Of a stretch of 49,491 bases of DNA, positions 12,462 through 34,677 are shown one piece after another. A model generated the notes under the pieces. It had not been told where the DNA came from. It saw nothing but the letters and a program-made list of their open reading frames with translations, and searched no databases. This DNA comes from an uncultured Gammaproteobacteria bacterium (lineage in GTDB: Bacteria > Patescibacteriota > Patescibacteriia > Magasanikbacterales > GWA2-37-8). The translations under genes were made by a program, and so were the position numbers. Location: assembly GCA_964640515.1 (NCBI GenBank), contig CAZXFG010000001.1, forward strand, positions 1 through 49,491, written 5' to 3'. Numbering within the stretch: the first letter of the stretch is position 1; every line of letters begins with the position of its first letter.

Positions 12462-12533
12462 TGCGCTCGTTAGGAATCGAACCTAAATTTTCGGCTTCGC
12501 AGGCCAATGTCCTATCCGTTGAACGACGAGCGC
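12462..12533 (-). tRNA. tRNA-Arg (anticodon GCG)
   Basis: Manual cloverleaf: acceptor GCGCUCG/CGAGCGC, D arm, anticodon stem UUGGC/GCCGA with loop CUGCGAA, T arm UUAGG-UUCGAUU-CCUAA, discriminator A. No encoded CCA. Confidence 0.85.
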
Positions 12534-13287: not shown

Positions 13288-13361
13288 TGGATGATACTGG
13301 GATCGAACCAGTGACCTTTGCAATGTGAATGCAACGCTCTAACCAGCTGAGCTAATCATCC
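13288..13361 (-). tRNA. tRNA-Val (anticodon CAC)
   Basis: Manual cloverleaf: acceptor GGAUGAU/AUCAUCC, D arm GCUC..GAGC, anticodon stem UUGCA/UGCAA with loop UUCACAU, T arm ACUGG-UUCGAUC-CCAGU, discriminator A. Confidence 0.9.
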
Positions 13362-14989: not shown

Positions 14990-16366
14990 ATGGCCACACC
15001 CGCTAAAATAGTAAATTTAGAACTACCGATAGTCGTCTTAATCGGTCGAGTCAATGTCGGCAAATCCACGCTTTTTAATAAGATAGTGGAATATAACCAA
15101 GCTATTGTTTCCAACATCCCCGGCACCACCCGCACCCGTAATGTGGGCATCGCTGTCTGGCGCGGTAAAAATTTTCAAATAGTGGACACAGGCGGTCTGA
15201 CCTTTGACGAAACAGTGCCTCTGGAAAAAGACATCATCCAACAAACTGAAACAGCCGTAATCGAAGCTGATGTTATTGTCTTTGTTGTAGATTTGCAAAC
15301 CGGACTTTTGCCTCAAGAAAAAGCGCTGGCTAAAAAAATCGCCCAAAAACACAAAAATAAAACGATTATTTTAGTGGGCAACAAGGCTGATAATAACACT
15401 TGGCGCTTGCAAATCCACGACCGGGAATGGCTGCGGTTGGGTTTAGGAGAACCCCTGCCTCTTTCAGCTAAAAACGGTAACGGTATCGGCGATTTATTAG
15501 ATAAAATTTTTAAAACGCTCAATAAACAACCGCGCCGGCCGAAAAGAATTAAAGAATTCTCACCAATCCGCGTCGCTATCATGGGCAAACCAAATGTCGG
15601 CAAATCCAGTCTTTTCAACCATCTCATTGGACAAGAGCGGGTCATTGTCTCGGCTATGCCGCACACTACTCGCGAACCGCACGACACTTTAGTGGAATAT
15701 GAAGGACAACATATTCTGTTTATTGATACGGCCGGCATCAGACGCAAAGCCAAGGTTTCCGGCGATTTGGAAAAACAAGGCATTGGCAAAAGTATAGAGA
15801 TGATTACCAAATCAGACATTGTTCTGCTCCTTTTGGACGCTTCCGAACCTATTACCGACCAAGATAAGCAGTTGGCCGGACTATTGCGCGAACAAACCAG
15901 AAGCGTCATTATCGTTATTAATAAATGGGATACGGCCGATGATAACGACGATGCTTTCAGAAATGAGGTGCGAACTAAAATTTATAAAGAATTTCCCCAC
16001 TTAGATTTCGCTCCGATTGTCTTTACCAGCTCTCTGACCCAATATCGCATTCATCAAATTTTCCCGATGATCATCCGGGCATGGAATGAACGCCAAACTC
16101 AAATCCCGTCAGACGCTCTGCAGGATTTTATCAAAAGAGCGACTCGCAAGCATTTACCCTCGCGCGGCAAAGGCGTGCGACATCCGCAAATTATGGGCTT
16201 CACTCAACTGCGAGCCAACCCCCCAATGTTTGAGATGACCATTAAGAATAAAACTTCGGTACATTTTTCCTATGTGCATTATTTGGAAAATAAACTGCGG
16301 GAACAATTCAGTTTTTATGCCGCGCCTTTGATTATCAAATTGAGCAAACTAAAAAGAAACGACTAA
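14990..16366 (+). CDS. der: Ribosome-associated GTPase Der/EngA
   Basis: 458 aa. Tandem G domains (GRVNVGKSTLFN and GKPNVGKSSLFN; NKAD and NKWD) plus a KH-like C-terminus. Confidence 0.95.
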   Translation: MATPAKIVNLELPIVVLIGRVNVGKSTLFNKIVEYNQAIVSNIPGTTRTRNVGIAVWRGKNFQIVDTGGLTFDETVPLEKDIIQQTETAVIEADVIVFVVDLQTGLLPQEKALAKKIAQKHKNKTIILVGNKADNNTWRLQIHDREWLRLGLGEPLPLSAKNGNGIGDLLDKIFKTLNKQPRRPKRIKEFSPIRVAIMGKPNVGKSSLFNHLIGQERVIVSAMPHTTREPHDTLVEYEGQHILFIDTAGIRRKAKVSGDLEKQGIGKSIEMITKSDIVLLLLDASEPITDQDKQLAGLLREQTRSVIIVINKWDTADDNDDAFRNEVRTKIYKEFPHLDFAPIVFTSSLTQYRIHQIFPMIIRAWNERQTQIPSDALQDFIKRATRKHLPSRGKGVRHPQIMGFTQLRANPPMFEMTIKNKTSVHFSYVHYLENKLREQFSFYAAPLIIKLSKLKRND

Positions 16367-25565: not shown

Positions 25566-25647
25566 GCCCGAGTGGCGGAATTGGCAGACGCGCACGACTC
25601 AAAATCGTGTGGAGCAATCCATGTGGGTTCAATTCCCACCTCGGGCA
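25566..25647 (+). tRNA. tRNA-Leu (anticodon CAA), long variable arm
   Basis: Manual cloverleaf: acceptor GCCCGAG/CUCGGGC, anticodon stem CACGA/UCGUG with loop CUCAAAA, 13-nt variable arm, T arm GUGGG-UUCAAUU-CCCAC. Confidence 0.9.
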
Positions 25648-25652
25648 CTACT

Positions 25653-26660
25653 ATGAACTTCTTTACTTTGGCAGTATTTGGCTATATATTTACTGCCTCT
25701 ATTCTCATTTATATCATCAGCCGCGACCAGCGTTTACCCGAACGATTTTTTGGCAAACTCAAAAAAATATCTTGGATATTTATAATAGTCTTGAGCGCCA
25801 CTTCAATGTTTGCCTTTTACGCCAGATTTATTGAACCATTTTTTATAATCACCAAACAACGGGATATCCATATAACTACGCTGTCCAGTCCCGTCAAAAT
25901 TGCTCTGGTGGCGGATATACAACTGAATAAATACAAGAATAACCATTGGGTAAAAAAAATAATAAAAAAAATAGAAGAAGCTAAACCGGATTTAATCATC
26001 TTTGTCGGCGACTTGATTTCCAACGAGGGATCTTTTCACGAAACAGGGGTAACAGCGACTAACGAAGCCGGCCTGCTGGCGTCATTTTTCACTCTTACTG
26101 AAAAATACCCCGGTTATTACACCTTGGGCAACCACGAATACGGGTTAGGCAACACCACCAGATCCTTTCCCGATCTCTGGACCGGTGATTACAGCGATGA
26201 AGTAAAAAATACAATGGACGACATAGGCGTTCAATCATTGATCAACCGCCTGGATTGTCCGAAAATTAAGAATCAAAAAATATGTTTTTTTGGGATAGAT
26301 GATATTTGGGGCGCGGAAAACAAACAAACCATCATAGACTTCTCTGGACTGAAAGAATGGGATCAAAAAACACCGTTAATCTTCGTAACTCATAATCCGG
26401 ACGGAATTTTATACTGGCCAAAAGAAATAAAAAAACCCGACCTAGTATTGGCCGGGCATACTCATGGCGGACAAATTTACCTACCATTTCTCGGTCCAAT
26501 AGGCGACGCCGGGGTGGTCTTAGGGAAAAAATACTATCGCGGACTGAATTATTTTGAAAACACACCCATTTATACTTCTGTGGGCCTAGGAGAATCCGGA
26601 GGACCGATTCGTTTCATGACTCCACCGGAATTATCTATTATAAATCTGACACTACAGTAA
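25653..26660 (+). CDS. Membrane-anchored calcineurin-like metallophosphoesterase
   Basis: The track ORF start (25572) lies inside tRNA-Leu. The ATG at 25653 gives MNFFTLAVFGYIF. Motifs GDLIS, GNHEY and GHTHGGQ. Confidence 0.85.
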   Translation: MNFFTLAVFGYIFTASILIYIISRDQRLPERFFGKLKKISWIFIIVLSATSMFAFYARFIEPFFIITKQRDIHITTLSSPVKIALVADIQLNKYKNNHWVKKIIKKIEEAKPDLIIFVGDLISNEGSFHETGVTATNEAGLLASFFTLTEKYPGYYTLGNHEYGLGNTTRSFPDLWTGDYSDEVKNTMDDIGVQSLINRLDCPKIKNQKICFFGIDDIWGAENKQTIIDFSGLKEWDQKTPLIFVTHNPDGILYWPKEIKKPDLVLAGHTHGGQIYLPFLGPIGDAGVVLGKKYYRGLNYFENTPIYTSVGLGESGGPIRFMTPPELSIINLTLQ

Positions 26661-26786
26661 ATACAAAAACGGGTATTACCCTTTCGCAAACAGTGTCGAT
26701 TTGCCCGCGGGCAAATCGCACTTCAGATCTCACCCGCCGCGAGGCGGGTTCCGATATGTTGCTCAAAGGTAATCCCGTTTTTGTAT
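26661..26786 (+). repeat. Structured ~126-nt element, copy 1 (Y-shaped: outer stem plus two hairpins with conserved junctions)
   Basis: It fills the whole convergent intergenic gap. A 19-bp outer stem (one bulged nt) pairs ATACAAAAACGGGTATTACC with GGTAATCCCGTTTTTGTAT. Junction blocks of 18, 14 and 17 nt are identical to the copy at 31751..31870, while both inner stems differ but stay paired. Confidence 0.65.
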
Positions 26787-26792
26787 ATATTA

Positions 26793-28085
26793 CTATGGTT
26801 TAAGTCGTCCAATAGTCCGAGGAAACGGAATACATTCACGGATATGTTCGGCTCCGGTAATCCAGCGCACGGTACGCTCTAATCCGATGCCAAATCCCGA
26901 ATGCGGCACACTGCCATAACGCCGTAAATCCAAATACCACTCATAATCCGCCTTATTCAACCCTTCGGACTCTATTCTCTTTTCTAATAATTCAATATCA
27001 TCTTCGCGTTGGCTGCCGCCGATGATTTCACCACCGCCATCAGTGGCTATCAGGTCATCGTTTAAAACCAATTCCTGATTCTCCGCGTCCCGCTTCATAT
27101 AAAACGGCTTGATGCTCTTTGGCCACTTTTCAATAAATACCGGCACCTCGCTGTCTTTGGTCAAGAGACCTTCGTCGTCGTTGCCCAAATCTTCACCATA
27201 TTTAATATCCGAACCCAGCTCATTTAATTTTTTAATGGCTTCGTCATAGGTATATCGTTTGAATGGCGCATCAACTTTTTTCAACTTTTCAATATCCCGT
27301 TCCATTATAGCCAACTCCTCCGCGCAATGCTCCAGACAATAGCGGACGATATATTTCACCAACGCCTCTTGCAGACGCAAATTTTCTTCATGCTCAACGA
27401 AGGATGCTTCCGCGTCCATCATCCAAAACTCGGTTAAATGGCGCTTAGTTTTGCTCTTTTCCGCCCTAAACACCGGGCCAAAATCGTAACAACGGCCAAC
27501 CGAGGCAATGGCCGCCTCAATATATAACTGCCCGGATTGCGATAAATAGGCCGTGCCCAAATCAAAATATGGTACGGGGAATAAAGTGGTGGTTCCCTCG
27601 CAAGCGTTTGGGGTAAAAATGGGAGAATCAGCGCGGATAAAATTTTCCTGGTGTAAATATTCGTTAATCGCGGTGGTAATAGCATCGCGTATTCGTAAAA
27701 TCGCCCATTGTTTTTTACTGCGCAACCACAGATGGCGGTTATCCATGAGGAAATCCGGGCCATGATCCTTTTTGGCAATTGGATAATCTTTAGATAACTG
27801 TAAAATCTTCAATCCGGTAATCTGCAATTCAAAAACATTTTCTTTTTTAGGATGTCTGGAAACTTCGCCTGTCACTTCCACGGCTGATTCTTGGGTTACC
27901 GTTTCCGCGGCCTGCCACACCTCGGCTGACGCCTCTTTTCGCGCTACCACTCCCTGCACCCAGCCATAACCATCGCGCAATTCTAAAAAGTATAACGGGC
28001 CGGACGAACGCTTGTTATAGAGCCAACCTTTTACCGTCACTTCTTCTCCAATATGTTCGGATATATTTTTAAATAATATAATCAT
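26793..28085 (-). CDS. asnS: Asparaginyl-tRNA synthetase
   Basis: 430 aa class II aaRS. OB N-terminus, FRAEKSKTKRHLTEFWMMDAE, GGSQRE and GFGIGLERTV...IPFPR tail typical of AsnRS. Confidence 0.9.
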   Translation of the reverse strand: MIILFKNISEHIGEEVTVKGWLYNKRSSGPLYFLELRDGYGWVQGVVARKEASAEVWQAAETVTQESAVEVTGEVSRHPKKENVFELQITGLKILQLSKDYPIAKKDHGPDFLMDNRHLWLRSKKQWAILRIRDAITTAINEYLHQENFIRADSPIFTPNACEGTTTLFPVPYFDLGTAYLSQSGQLYIEAAIASVGRCYDFGPVFRAEKSKTKRHLTEFWMMDAEASFVEHEENLRLQEALVKYIVRYCLEHCAEELAIMERDIEKLKKVDAPFKRYTYDEAIKKLNELGSDIKYGEDLGNDDEGLLTKDSEVPVFIEKWPKSIKPFYMKRDAENQELVLNDDLIATDGGGEIIGGSQREDDIELLEKRIESEGLNKADYEWYLDLRRYGSVPHSGFGIGLERTVRWITGAEHIRECIPFPRTIGRLKP

Positions 28086-31347: not shown

Positions 31348-31402
31348 TAAATGTTCAAATATCTGCTATCTGCCAGAACAACCAGAACAAGAAGGAGGGA
31401 TA

Positions 31403-31537
31403 ATGTACTTTCTCAAATACCTGCCGGCCTCGGTGCCGCTCCTCATGGCCTTGGCCCTCTTCGGGGCCGATGCCGAAATGCTCTTCGTTGGAGGATGCAC
31501 GACCTGCATCCTCCTGGAATTGCAGCGGAGGGGGTGA
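31403..31537 (+). CDS. Candidate 44-aa hydrophobic mini-protein (alternatively part of a structured ncRNA)
   Basis: AAGGAGG lies 4 nt upstream of the ATG. Peptide is MYFLKYLPASVPLLMALALFGADAEMLFVGGCTTCILLELQRRG. By hand count, 36 of 44 codons end in G/C, unlike neighbouring genes. Confidence 0.35.
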   Translation: MYFLKYLPASVPLLMALALFGADAEMLFVGGCTTCILLELQRRG

Positions 31538-31617
31538 AAAGAGGACTCCTGCTCCCCAGCTCGAGTCCCCAAGAAGATAAATTTTGTCTTTTTAGGGACG
31601 CTGGAGAACAGACCCTA

Positions 31618-31643
31618 GATCCCCGTTTTCACGGGGATGACAG
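31618..31643 (+). repeat. Hairpin repeat with ATGACAG tail
   Basis: GATCCCCG-ttttca-CGGGGAT followed by GACAG. Confidence 0.5.
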
Positions 31644-31646
31644 ATG

Positions 31647-31683
31647 AAAAACCCCGTCCACTCGGACGGGGTTTTTGTTTTTT
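31647..31683. terminator. Strong bidirectional intrinsic terminator
   Basis: AAAAA-ACCCCGTCC-actc-GGACGGGGT-TTTTTGTTTTTT. It has a U tract in both orientations, ending the orphan + transcript and probably secY read-through on the - strand. Confidence 0.7.
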
Positions 31684-31685
31684 AA

Positions 31686-31739
31686 GGGATTCCTCGACGG
31701 AGTTTATCCCGAGCGTAGTCGAGGGACTCGGGATGACAG
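31686..31739 (+). repeat. Compound hairpin repeat with ATGACAG tail
   Basis: Interleaved arms CCTCGAC/GTCGAGG and ATCCCGAG/CTCGGGAT, ending in GATGACAG. Confidence 0.5.
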
Positions 31740-31750
31740 ATAGGATATAA

Positions 31751-31870
31751 AAAAGAGGAGATATTCTTGAGCAACATATCGGAGCCCCGACCTGGCGTCG
31801 GGGCGAGATCTGAAGTGCGGCTCGCCCGCAGGCGAGACGACACTGTTTGCGAAAGAGTATCTCCTCTTTT
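31751..31870 (-). repeat. Structured ~120-nt element, copy 2 (inverted relative to copy 1)
   Basis: Its reverse complement aligns with 26681..26767. Blocks CTTTCGCAAACAGTGTCG, CGCACTTCAGATCT and TCCGATATGTTGCTCAA are identical. Hairpins CTCGCC-tgcg-GGCGAG and GCCCCGAC-gccag-GTCGGGGC replace those of copy 1. It has its own outer stem AAAAGAGGAGATATTC/GAGTATCTCCTCTTTT. Confidence 0.65.
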
Positions 31871-31889
31871 AATTTTTTATAGGACAAAA

Positions 31890-33164
31890 CTAAATCCGGT
31901 CGTATTCATGCATGGTCACCTGCGCGTCCAGCTGTTTCGCCGTTTCAATGGCCACAGCCACCACGATGAGCAAGCTGGTGCCTCCCCAACGGAGAGCTTG
32001 ACTGCCGGAAGCGGTCTGTAAAATCAAAGGCAGAATAGCGATAACACCCAGGAATAAAGCTCCGATCAAATTGACGCGATTAACTGTATCGTGGAGATAC
32101 TTCTCGGTTTCTTTGCCCGGTCTGATACCCGGTATAAAACCGCCCTGGCGCTGTAAATTTTCAGCGATTTTTTGCGGATGAAAGATTACCGCGGTGTAGA
32201 AAAATGTAAAACCAAATACTAATAAGAAATACGCCACCGCATAGAAAGTCTGGTTCTGAAATATGCCAATCACCTGTGTGGCCGCGCCAACGATCCAATC
32301 AGTCTTGGCCCGGGTGAAAAACTGCGCCACCATGGGTGGAAACAAAATCAAAGAAATAGCGAAGATAATCGGGATAACGCCGGCCATATTCACTCGCAAA
32401 GGCAGATGGGAACTGGATCCGCCATAGGTGCGATTCCCGCGCACCTGCTTGGCGTAATTCACCGGAATGTTGCGCTGGCCTTCACTGATAAACACTACGC
32501 CCACCACGGTCGCCACCGCGATTACACCGAAAAAGATAAAGGTATAAAGGTCGGAAGGGTTATAGTTAATTAAGGCGTTCCTAACCGCTCCCGGAATACT
32601 GGCCACGATACCGGCAAAAATCAAAAGAGAGATGCCGTTGCCAATCTTCTTTTCCGAGATCAATTCACCCAGCCACATCAAAAACATCGTGCCGCCGCTG
32701 ATCGTAATCATGATAGTCGCCAATCTAAAAGTATTCAAATCGGTGATAATCGGGCGGGCTGAACCAGACAATAATTTAATCATGGCGTAGGATTGCAAAA
32801 AAGCCAAAGGCACGGTCAGCCAACGAGTATACATGTTGATTTTTTGCTGGCCATATTCACCTTCTTTAGATAATTCTTCCAACTTAGGCACGATCATGGC
32901 CAAAAGCTGGAAAATAATAGAGGAGGTGATATACGGCCCCACGCCTAACATGACTATAGAAAAATTCTCCATAGTGCCGCCGGAGAAAACATTAAGCATT
33001 CCCAAAATCTGATTACCTTCCAGAAACTGCCTTAAATTGGCCAGATTAACTCCGGGCACAGGAATATGGGCCACTAAACGAAAAATAACCAGCATGGACA
33101 AAACAAAAAGAATCTTATTTCTAATGTCATTAATCGCCCAAGCTTGTTTAATGCGATCCCACAT
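31890..33164 (-). CDS. secY: Preprotein translocase subunit SecY
   Basis: 424 aa, 10-TM pattern, N-terminus ...IRNKILFVLSMLVIFRLVAHIPVPGV. Confidence 0.95.
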   Translation of the reverse strand: MWDRIKQAWAINDIRNKILFVLSMLVIFRLVAHIPVPGVNLANLRQFLEGNQILGMLNVFSGGTMENFSIVMLGVGPYITSSIIFQLLAMIVPKLEELSKEGEYGQQKINMYTRWLTVPLAFLQSYAMIKLLSGSARPIITDLNTFRLATIMITISGGTMFLMWLGELISEKKIGNGISLLIFAGIVASIPGAVRNALINYNPSDLYTFIFFGVIAVATVVGVVFISEGQRNIPVNYAKQVRGNRTYGGSSSHLPLRVNMAGVIPIIFAISLILFPPMVAQFFTRAKTDWIVGAATQVIGIFQNQTFYAVAYFLLVFGFTFFYTAVIFHPQKIAENLQRQGGFIPGIRPGKETEKYLHDTVNRVNLIGALFLGVIAILPLILQTASGSQALRWGGTSLLIVVAVAIETAKQLDAQVTMHEYDRI

Positions 33165-33194: not shown

Positions 33195-33635
33195 CTACTT
33201 CACTTCCCCGCCAAGAGCCTTGATTTTTTCAGCCACAGTTTTAGTGGTCTTAATACCCGTCACAATCAACTTTTTAGTCAGTTCACCCTTGAACAATATC
33301 TTAGCCGTCTTAGCGTTGACGCCGATAATTTTTTTCTCTTTTAAAGACGCTATATCCACCGTATCCCCGGCTTTAAATACTTTGTCCAATTGACTCAAGT
33401 AAACCTCGGCCGGTTTTTCGGCTAAACTGCGGAATCCGCGCAACTTAGGAGTGGATTGCAACAACCTCTTAAAAGCTTTTAATCGCAGACCGCTGCCCCC
33501 GCCCGAACGAGCGGTTTGGCCCTTTCCGCCGCGAGTAGAAAAAGTGCCGTGCCCGGAGGCATTGCCGCGGCCGATTCTTTTCACGCGATGTTTAGCTCCG
33601 CGAGCCGGTTTAAGTGTGTGTGCTTGTAATTTCAT
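33195..33635 (-). CDS. rplO: 50S ribosomal protein L15
   Basis: 146 aa with RIGRGNASGHGTFSTRGGKGQTARSGG. Confidence 0.95.
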   Translation of the reverse strand: MKLQAHTLKPARGAKHRVKRIGRGNASGHGTFSTRGGKGQTARSGGGSGLRLKAFKRLLQSTPKLRGFRSLAEKPAEVYLSQLDKVFKAGDTVDIASLKEKKIIGVNAKTAKILFKGELTKKLIVTGIKTTKTVAEKIKALGGEVK

Positions 33636-33640
33636 AAAAA

Positions 33641-34222
33641 TTAAGAAGTTGTTTTCTTTTTAATTTTAACAATTTTATCGCTCGGATCTTCTACTTCTAT
33701 TTTTACTTGCACTTCCGGCGGGACAGGCGTTGCTTTGGTCGTATGCCTCTTGAATTGATTCAAAGCGTCAAAAGTGGCTTTAACTATCAAAATCTTGTCT
33801 TTTGTGCGGCTCAAAATCTTAGAAGACACATTGGGGATGCCGGCTAATTCCAAAACCGCGCGCACGGCTCCGCCGGCGATAATACCAGAACCGCGAGGAG
33901 CCGGCTTTAACATCACCCGAGCAGACTTAAATTTACTCTCCACCCAATGCGGTATGGTTTCATTAACAATCGGCACGGAAATAAAATTCTTTTTGGCCTG
34001 ATGCACCGCTTTTTCCACGCCTAACTGCACATCCTTGCCTTTGGCAACACCATAAGCCACTCTTCCCTTGCGGTCGCCCAAAATCACACAAACGCGAAAA
34101 CTCAAATGCTTGCCGCCTTCGGTGACACGAGTTACACGAGACAAATCCAAAATATATTGGTCAAAGGCCGGTTTTTCATCTTGTGGCCGACCGCCTCTTT
34201 TGTTGCGCATCATTTTATTCAT
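33641..34222 (-). CDS. rpsE: 30S ribosomal protein S5 (with C-terminal extension)
   Basis: The track start at 34249 is a TTG; the first ATG is at 34222 (MNKMMRNKRGG). S5 core RVTRVTEGGKHLSFRVCVILGD and GSGIIAGGAVRAVLELAGI. Start is uncertain. Confidence 0.9.
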   Translation of the reverse strand: MNKMMRNKRGGRPQDEKPAFDQYILDLSRVTRVTEGGKHLSFRVCVILGDRKGRVAYGVAKGKDVQLGVEKAVHQAKKNFISVPIVNETIPHWVESKFKSARVMLKPAPRGSGIIAGGAVRAVLELAGIPNVSSKILSRTKDKILIVKATFDALNQFKRHTTKATPVPPEVQVKIEVEDPSDKIVKIKKKTTS

Positions 34223-34308
34223 AATCGAAATGAGTGAGGAAACAATCAAATGTATTTGATTATTTTCGAACGAATGAGATTATACCGTAAATATACTTAA
34301 TATATATT

Positions 34309-34677
34309 TTAAAATTGTAAACCGCCGGCGCGAGCGCCTTCAGCTACGGCTTTCACCCGGCCATGATATTTATACCCGCCTCTATCAAACACCACTTTTT
34401 CAATGCCTTTGGCTTTGGCTTTCTCCGCAATCAATTGGCCCAACTTTAAGGCTGCTTCGCTCTTCTTCACACCCGGTTTGACGCCGGCTTCACGGCTGGA
34501 GGCATAGCATAAAGTACGCCCTGTCACATCATCTATCAACTGCGCGACCATGCCTCGCAAACTGCGGTATACTGACAAACGAGGGCGTTCAGCCGTGCCT
34601 TTCACCACTGCGCGCACTCTTCGGTGGCGTTGCGCGCGCAAACCTTCTCCGGCTTTATTGTTAATCAATCTTTTCAT
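34309..34677 (-). CDS. rplR: 50S ribosomal protein L18
   Basis: 122 aa with [23 protein letters not shown] and a [13 protein letters not shown] tail. Confidence 0.95.

Follow-up and report, generated by a model that had tools for sequence, protein, structure and literature searches.

The question raised by contig CAZXFG010000001.1 (GenBank assembly GCA_964640515.1), a stretch of 49,491 nucleotides analysed in full and referred to below as the window, is what kind of genetic unit is represented by a branched, hairpin-forming element that occurs there twice, once between two convergent genes and once, inverted, just after secY. The host belongs to the Candidate Phyla Radiation (CPR, Patescibacteria), bacteria with tiny genomes and very short intergenic regions, whose mobile DNA and RNA biology is little known. 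Both copies, their gene contexts and their layout of A-run, stem and T-run had been described correctly in a first-pass annotation, which took the element for a selected fold rather than repeat copies and proposed that its core might sit in, or have been inserted into, terminator loops. That interpretation was partly supported: the fold is maintained and insertion into terminators is borne out by syntenic relatives in which the copy 1 site holds just a plain bidirectional terminator, but the opposition of fold and repeat proved false, the two copies being members of a dispersed family that is polymorphic among relatives. The reading favoured here, to which we give about an even chance, is that the family is a non-autonomous mobile DNA element of about 100 nt that homes to the tips of intrinsic terminator hairpins.

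Each of the three sequence blocks shared by the two copies was found exactly twice in the window, even when two to three mismatches were allowed, the chance expectation being 0.12–0.19 matches per block. The two copies share the fold originally described, in which short core helices connect an outer stem with two inner hairpins: the outer stem P1 (18–23 bp), a 2x2 TC/TC loop and the 4-bp helix P2 (GCAA/TTGC) lead into a three-way junction; one arm of it, P3 (AGTG.CG/CGCACT), ends in hairpin 1, and the other, P4 (CAGATC/GATATG), continues by way of a small loop into hairpin 2. Folding z-scores for both copies, on either strand, lay between −7.6 and −9.5. The outer stems are paired, as had been claimed, but not perfectly, as each carries one C·A mismatch (in the orientation of copy 1) and copy 1 additionally has a bulge. 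Neither a hammerhead-like nor a K-turn interpretation of the core agreed with the consensus on manual inspection. No named RNA family had been recognised in the sequence, and Rfam 15 at gathering thresholds, including all self-cleaving ribozyme classes, likewise gave no match over either copy on either strand; at E values up to 10 the sole overlap was WT1-AS_5, with 14.3 bits, which is noise.

The family was found to comprise 18 distinct full copies and two cut copies (L012 and L047). A third copy (L002), with the same core, other hairpins and a different, perfect outer stem of 24 bp, was recovered by a scan of GTDB genomes in a Candidatus Magasanikiibacteriota metagenome-assembled genome (MAG), while the other match of that scan (L001) was a chance match. 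A scan of JGI metagenomes returned 29 loci, 17 of which were true copies (among them L002 and window copy 2, recovered a second time, and one copy truncated at a contig end); the other 12 were false, mostly a coding motif of MBOAT/AlgI (...LQIYFDFSGYSDMA...), with two plain chance matches. The search pattern fixed blocks 2 and 3 but not block 1, and only the copies added by synteny walks, namely L040/L050 and the cut copy L047, were found independently of it. Scans of viral contigs yielded one chance match and no true copy, and BLAST against phage and plasmid collections gave no match to the element. All family copies come from groundwater metagenomes or MAGs of Candidatus Magasanikbacteria, one being a GTDB Magasanikiibacteriota MAG, and the family has so far been seen only in one clade of that lineage; copy 2 is identical in six further assemblies of the same strain. 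The window itself was placed in Candidatus Magasanikbacteria by its SecY and Asn-tRNA ligase (AsnRS) homologs, with best named matches of 75–81% identity, and its rpsE is directly followed by rplO with no rpmD (L30) between them (33635–33641), which fits a CPR genome. A full-text literature search for the block sequences returned unrelated primers only, no description of this family was found in literature searches on terminator-targeting miniature transposable elements with inverted repeats (MITEs) or CPR RNA motifs, and the family is previously undescribed. In a variant cut by a contig end (L012 1–114, −), AACAGTG of block 1 is swapped for an additional hairpin (CCCGCC tag GCGGG), which shows the family to be broader than a fixed-sequence pattern could detect.

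The fold is maintained across the family. In an alignment of 17 copies, standard pairs occupied 90% of the pair cells, compared with 37–43% when the partners were slid, and 31 pairs changed on both sides; no shuffle attained any of these measures, and RNAalifold, unaided, returned the same P1, P2, P3/hairpin 1 and P4. P2 has G-C in place of A-U in five of the 17 copies aligned, whereas P3 and P4 are invariant in all of them and thus lie outside the reach of a covariation test. The earlier description of the hairpins as entirely different and fully compensated did not hold for the family as a whole: the hairpin 2 sequences form two related subfamilies, and a conserved tandem mismatch occurs in one half of the hairpin 1 versions and is kept while the adjacent pairs covary (L015 and L012, for example). 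Moreover, the orthologous copies L015 and L018 differ by the whole of hairpin 1 and L011 and L027 by the whole of hairpin 2, the remainder being alike in each pair, and L027 is 94% identical to its paralog L010, closer than to its own ortholog. Since orthologous pairs differ by an entire hairpin, part of the compensation first noted as perfect probably reflects ready-made hairpins swapped through the conserved blocks, and much of the hairpin diversity looks like whole-hairpin exchange between copies rather than stepwise compensation.

The limits of the repeat unit were drawn from pairwise identities between non-orthologous copies. Block 2 was the most conserved (0.99), followed by block 3 (0.94) and block 1 (0.93, although it was absent from the search pattern), and then by hairpin 2 (0.72), hairpin 1 (0.61) and the inner 8 bp of P1 (0.54–0.60); the rest of P1 reached 0.40–0.52, against 0.34–0.38 expected from base composition. 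Block 2 was also identical in L040, which was located by synteny and not by the search pattern. Homology thus ends 7–8 bp outside the core, with similarity near the base-composition level beyond, and the repeat unit therefore measures about 100 nt, from TACYCTT to AAGRGTA; the distal stem and A/T runs outside it are locus-specific and appear to derive from the host. The ends of the element form a 7–8 bp inverted repeat, TACYCTT ... AAGRGTA, that is only 0.54–0.60 conserved, and no insertion sequence (IS) with ends of this type was found. In about 14 of the 18 copies a TA is placed symmetrically within the palindrome, at a variable distance from the core.

The comparison of orthologous sites carries the argument for insertion. 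Relatives share the gene order secY-adk-map-ruvX-recO-asnS, after which come a convergent metallophosphoesterase gene and parAB, and at the asnS/metallophosphoesterase site (percentages are AsnRS identity to the window) the element is present in the orientation of the window in L047 (89%) and in the opposite orientation in L040/L050 (87%). At the same site L042 (87%) has a plain terminator, AAAAAAATAGGCC ttac GGCCTATTTTTT, L045 and L046 (78–79%) also have plain terminators, and in L048 (86%) the two genes overlap, with no intergenic region. Of the L042 terminator, the filled L040 site still has the A/T runs, the outer ATAGG/CCTAT and also the flanking sequence, which is direct evidence that the element lies inside a pre-existing terminator hairpin. 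The distal 5' arm of copy 1 is read as a leftover host terminator stem on the same grounds, namely similarity between copies at the level of base composition and the plain terminators at the orthologous site (L042, L045 and L046). The secY site is filled in the strain of the window only, the element being absent after secY in relatives with 78–92% SecY identity, and at another locus (L015/L018), with flanks 85% identical, the element lies in opposite orientations. Orthologous sites may therefore be empty, filled or flipped, and the spread is patchy, with no copies in about 120 kb of relatives (L042–L046 and L048) and two in the 49-kb window. In L043, a relative with 79% SecY identity, the asnS/metallophosphoesterase gap (15000–15650) is occupied by about 650 nt of GC-rich inserted sequence, which includes several GC-rich hairpins and an open reading frame (ORF) of 108 aa without a Pfam match.

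With 'sense' denoting the orientation of the + strand of copy 1, the 5'-side gene was co-directional in every copy that could be determined and ended 9–70 nt before the element, so that the copies do lie at gene 3' ends. The flanking ORFs are real genes according to Pfam (rplL, ndk, tsf, rpoD, rpsI, secY, ychF, tsaE, queH and others). All seven independent copies located between tandem genes are sense to the upstream gene (two-sided binomial p ~0.016), and the only sites at which both orientations were seen are those between convergent genes, with transcription of both strands. A T-run (at least six T in eight) follows the stem, read in the direction of the upstream gene, in 17 of the 18 copies, but the stem is preceded by an A-run of the same quality in just 11; the features predicted for an intrinsic terminator, a stable hairpin and then a U-run, are thus present. 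Polarity relative to transcription is fixed. It follows transcription and not replication, as orthologous convergent sites differ in orientation, which makes a replication-linked polarity unlikely; an outward promoter within the element was also considered as the cause, and no conserved −35/−10 pair was seen by eye.

The two strands of the element do not fold equally well. The complement of the sense strand was found to be more stable in all 18 copies, by a mean of 6.6 kcal/mol, and by 8 kcal/mol in the alignment fold, so that an early remark on a single outer-stem G-U that becomes C-A on the opposite strand proved a good lead. Among transition mismatches on the sense strand, C·A or A·C outnumbered G·U by 24 to 7 (19 to 8 in the alifold table). 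Hairpin 1 is GGCTCGCC-nnnn-GGCTCGCC in nine of the 18 copies, with tandem U·C/C·U on the sense strand, and a GCCTCGCC variant in the cut copy L012; the complement of that hairpin 1 is GGCGAGCC-nnnn-GGCGAGCC, which gives tandem sheared G·A pairs, in such a context reportedly a classic stable case of SantaLucia and Turner. The invariant TC/TC loop between P1 and P2 likewise becomes GA/GA on the complement, and the TC/TCC loop beneath hairpin 2 becomes GGA/GA. Contrary signs were also seen: on the sense strand P4 has a G·A mismatch, and the hairpin loops include GCGA and UUCG/CUCG/UACG. The puzzle is that the mRNA carries the sense strand although this strand folds less well, so that, under the favoured reading, selection would preserve the folding of a strand other than the one transcribed from the host gene. 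A second, unrelated repeat, ATAATCGAAATGAGTGAGGA-[variable hairpin]-GARCGAATGAGATTATA, was noted at window 34215–34320 (+), between rplR and rpsE and antisense, and at L002 695–805 (+), between rplJ and rplL and sense; identity between these copies ranges from 78% (BLAST) to 84% (alignment), and their stem is broken by repeated GA/GA tandem mismatches on the + strand. Conceivably, Magasanikbacteria possess a factor recognising helices with many tandem G·A pairs, which this second repeat also shows.

In the favoured reading, the element would enter an intrinsic terminator already present at a gene 3' end, at the tip of its hairpin, and the A-run, lower stem and T-run of the host would become the distal portion of a single long hairpin. 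Tight self-folding of the insert would rejoin the halves of the split terminator stem, and we propose that the terminator can for this reason keep working and the insertion be tolerated. The invariant core would most likely be recognised by a putative mobilising enzyme, the form recognised probably being the folded, single-stranded DNA complement of the mRNA; whole hairpins would be exchanged between copies by recombination through the conserved blocks, and the insert could flip between its inverted arms. Transposition and its enzyme, a single-stranded DNA intermediate and a retained terminator function are what we infer.

Several results weigh against such an element. No transposase, recombinase or reverse transcriptase was found in the window or beside the copies examined, where Pfam identified housekeeping genes only. 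No target-site duplication could be defined, the junction being wholly palindromic and the best empty/filled pairs just 86–89% identical at the protein level. For copy 2 no empty site was recovered, and the conserved plain terminator in its vicinity lies downstream of the element, not around it. The distal arms of L004, L029 and L047, which occupy different loci, are alike, having A(T)TACCTGTTTTT(T)AATTT in common past the inner repeat; the mobile unit may sometimes take more of the stem, or such terminators may be preferred targets. Conservation is opposite to that of a classical MITE, being highest in the interior and lowest at the ends, and a host-selected RNA would look alike. Finally, the invariance of blocks 2 and 3 is overstated, as both were fixed by the search pattern. 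One assembly of the secY locus (L036 3034–4870), either a strain variant or an assembly chimera, diverges about 160 nt past the element and includes a gene for an IS5-like transposase (DUF772 + DDE_Tnp_1) whose inverted ends are GAGAACTT; it was rejected as the partner of the element because these ends are unrelated.

The most serious competing explanation, which we consider rather unlikely, is that of a cis-acting RNA domain serving the host at mRNA 3' ends, either as a platform for a CPR protein or as a stabiliser against 3' exonucleases, with its spread secondary or long past (domesticated). The core, much more conserved than the ends, would suit such a module, as would the orthologs L011 and L027, whose flanks are 71% identical while their core blocks differ at about two of 50 positions, although replacement by other copies could equally explain this conservation. 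Transcription from the upstream gene reads the element in one sense in all seven tandem contexts, and stable RNA tetraloops are present in that sense (GCGA in nine of the 18 copies for hairpin 2; UUCG, CUCG or UACG in seven of the 18 for hairpin 1); the upstream genes are often highly expressed (rplL, tsf, rpsI, secY, rpoD and ndk). However, it is the transcribed strand that folds worse in every one of the 18 copies, and its flaws, an excess of C·A/A·C over G·U and the tandem U·C, are what selection on an RNA should purge. The flanking genes have no common function, and close relatives do without the element at the same genes.

A more specific proposal, regarded as improbable, is a structure-dependent element whose working strand is the complement of the carrier mRNA: it would travel in transcript 3' ends, spread through a folded single-stranded DNA copy of the RNA (cDNA-like) or of the template strand, and re-enter terminator tips with a polarity set by transcription and not by replication, as a 'terminator rider' for which bacteria offer no described counterpart. 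An element of the IS200/IS605 type (PATE) was judged very doubtful; a Y1 HUH transposase would then recognise the two hairpins as subterminal ones, single-stranded DNA would be entered 3' of a tetranucleotide, and the polarity would derive from replication. The sense strand has WTAC a few bases ahead of the core in 12 of the 18 copies (TTAC in four), the core ends in TCAA in 12 of the 18, and the loop of the empty L042 terminator is TTAC; TTAC and TCAA are the left and right cleavage tetranucleotides of IS608 (PMC3201880). The fixed polarity, the strand-asymmetric folding and the lack of a clearly visible target duplication would also be in keeping with a single-strand element. Nevertheless, this tetranucleotide match is possibly due to chance, and the better-folding strand is the complement of the one that reads TTAC...TCAA. 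The hairpin sequences vary (0.61 and 0.72), whereas it is the hairpins that a Y1 transposase recognises; the two spacings measure 17 nt each instead of 19 and 10; the element ends pair with each other, unlike those of IS200/IS605; the differing orientation at orthologous convergent sites would be unexpected for a polarity set by replication; and no tnpA turned up in the scans, none of which was aimed at tnpA.

An ordinary decaying MITE, in which the structure is a by-product of inverted repeats and the fold is not selected, is highly improbable. The dispersed, non-coding copies of less than 300 bp with presence/absence polymorphism among relatives agree with the classical description of MITEs, and an AT-rich inverted repeat at the ends, often including TA, and some uncompensated mismatches would also speak for this reading, but neutral decay would not leave 45 internal bases intact, nor interior blocks 0.93–0.99 identical around hairpin stems that are replaced yet still paired, and neither the tandem mismatch of hairpin 1 kept beside covarying pairs (L015 and L012) nor the systematic strand asymmetry would be expected of it. 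Equally remote is an antisense small RNA gene, expressed from the complementary strand through the transcript of the convergent gene or its own promoter: the complement folds better in every copy and only there do the odd pairs turn into G·U and tandem G·A, but transcription of the complement is not obvious in the seven tandem contexts, where the gap to the next gene is 12–67 nt, no conserved promoter is seen outside the stem, and the A-run that should terminate it is weak in seven of the 18 copies.

Among described elements, the closest is SPRITE of Streptococcus pneumoniae, an interspersed repeat of ~105 bp with AAAA/TTTT ends and a long duplex followed by a U-rich tract, which is found near gene 3' ends, strongly enriched between convergent genes, with no matching IS known and ~30 copies per genome (PMC3049150). 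The comparison, made from the published description only, reveals the same kind of small terminator-like repeat at (convergent) gene 3' ends, but in SPRITE the conserved repeat is the terminator-like duplex, whereas here the distal stem and runs are locus-specific, matching the host terminator, and a branched core within the hairpin is conserved; the host phylum is also unrelated. The REP/BIME and REPIN palindromes with their RAYT partners lie extragenically at 3' ends or between convergent genes and are thought to be mobilised as single-stranded hairpins (PMC3184786). They resemble the element in folding as both RNA and DNA and in the compensatory changes that keep pairing; however, REPs conserve the palindrome arms and a 5' GTAG, whereas here the arms vary and the interior is conserved, the GTAG motif is absent from the copies, and no RAYT gene was seen on the fragmentary contigs examined. 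The closest precedent for landing at a hairpin tip is given by IS1397 and ISKpn1 (and IS621), which insert into the loop or flank of a REP palindrome (PMC3184786). These are full insertion sequences with a transposase that target a repeat family, in contrast to a 100-nt passenger whose target class, intrinsic terminators, has no common sequence.

ERIC, Correia (CREE), RUP and BOX elements are 100–150 nt long with inverted ends, are co-transcribed, form long RNA hairpins and may affect termination or mRNA decay (PMC10969869, PMC3184786), and they are comparable to the present family in size, inverted ends, co-transcription and folding as RNA hairpins. Unlike it, they have conserved terminal repeats flanked by a TA (or other) duplication and usually mixed orientation, and are not limited to terminator tips. 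Integron attC sites are also imperfect palindromes (60–140 nt) that stand right after genes in a fixed orientation, are read as one folded single strand and conserve structure more than sequence, but they conserve the outermost R''/R' boxes (RYYYAAC/GTTRRRY) and vary inside, which is the reverse of the arrangement found here, where the outer stem is similar only at the composition level and the copies follow housekeeping genes rather than form a cassette array. Class C group II introns resemble the element in homing to intrinsic terminators and in their transcription-linked polarity; their insertion site lies behind the terminator and not at its tip, they are at least 400 nt long and contain ribozyme domains, and the group II intron models of Rfam 15 gave no match over either copy. 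None of the systems compared shares the combination of a conserved branched interior, a seemingly host-derived distal stem, a transcription-tied polarity and a better-folding complement.

If true, the favoured reading would show how a parasite may persist in a tiny genome, by occupying, and rebuilding, the non-coding structure that nearly every gene has. The family would then also mark terminators, the direction of transcription and variation between strains in Magasanikbacteria MAGs, and the strand puzzle would point to an overlooked single-stranded DNA or antisense stage. Annotation pipelines would otherwise label these 130-nt hairpins as giant terminators or candidate small RNAs.

Table 1. 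Positions in the window of the two copies, their parts and the terminator next to copy 2.
Feature	Position	Strand	Remarks
Copy 1, whole element including the distal stem taken as host-derived	26657..26790	+	cmsearch 124.1 bits
Copy 1, extent by first reading	26661-26786	+	confirmed; widened by the covariance model to 26657-26790
Copy 1, distal 5' arm with A-run (ATACAAAAACGGG)	26661..26673	+	partner 26774-26786
Copy 1, inner 5' arm (TATTACCCTT)	26674..26683	+	semi-conserved; terminal inverted repeat; family consensus TACYCTT; identity 0.60 (alignment columns 20-27)
Copy 1, core block 1 (TTTCGCAAACAGTGTCG)	26682..26698	+	TC side of 2x2 loop, P2 5' strand (GCAA), P3 5' strand (AGTG.CG); exact match
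Copy 1, hairpin 1 (ATTTGCCC gc GGGCAAAT)	26699..26716	+	module varying most across the family
Copy 1, core block 2 (CGCACTTCAGATCTC)	26717..26731	+	P3 3' strand and P4 5' strand; exact match
Copy 1, hairpin 2 (ACCCGCC gcga GGCGGGT)	26732..26749	+	GCGA-loop subfamily
Copy 1, core block 3 (TCCGATATGTTGCTCAA)	26750..26766	+	P4 3' strand, P2 3' strand (TTGC), TC side of 2x2 loop; exact match
Copy 1, outer-stem 3' arm with T-run (AAAGGTAATCCCGTTTTTGTAT)	26765..26786	+	
Copy 2, whole element	31742..31879	-	cmsearch 146.9 bits; extent by first reading 31751-31870
Copy 2, outer stem	31853-31870 paired with 31751-31768	-	
Copy 2, blocks	31838-31854, 31806-31819, 31767-31783	-	
Copy 2, hairpins	hairpin 1 31820-31837; hairpin 2 31784-31804	-	
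Plain bidirectional terminator (AAAAACCCCGTCC gagt GGACGGGGTTTTT)	31647..31676	.	about 70 nt beyond copy 2; kept in relatives without the element

According to Pfam, copy 1 is flanked by a metallophosphoesterase gene (25572–26660, +) and the convergent Asn-tRNA ligase gene (26793–28085, −), and copy 2 begins about 20 nt past the stop codon of secY (31890–33164, −). The plain terminator beyond copy 2 was rejected as its target, being intact and downstream of it; its conservation in element-free relatives indicates that copy 2 does not lie within it. Two hairpins that both open with TCTGTCATCCC (31634–31644 and 31730–31740, within window 31625–31745, −) bracket this terminator, and the relative L048 has a TGTCATCC...GGATC hairpin similar to the pair. 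The terminator also separates secY from a small convergent ORF located between secY and adk (window ~31351–31647, +), apparently encoding a short hydrophobic protein without a Pfam match, which is kept in L040 (7134–7415). Three tRNA genes were found in the window, at 12462–12533, 13288–13361 (−) and 25566–25647 (+), the last of which is overlapped by the long ORF call of the metallophosphoesterase gene, whose true start therefore probably lies further downstream.

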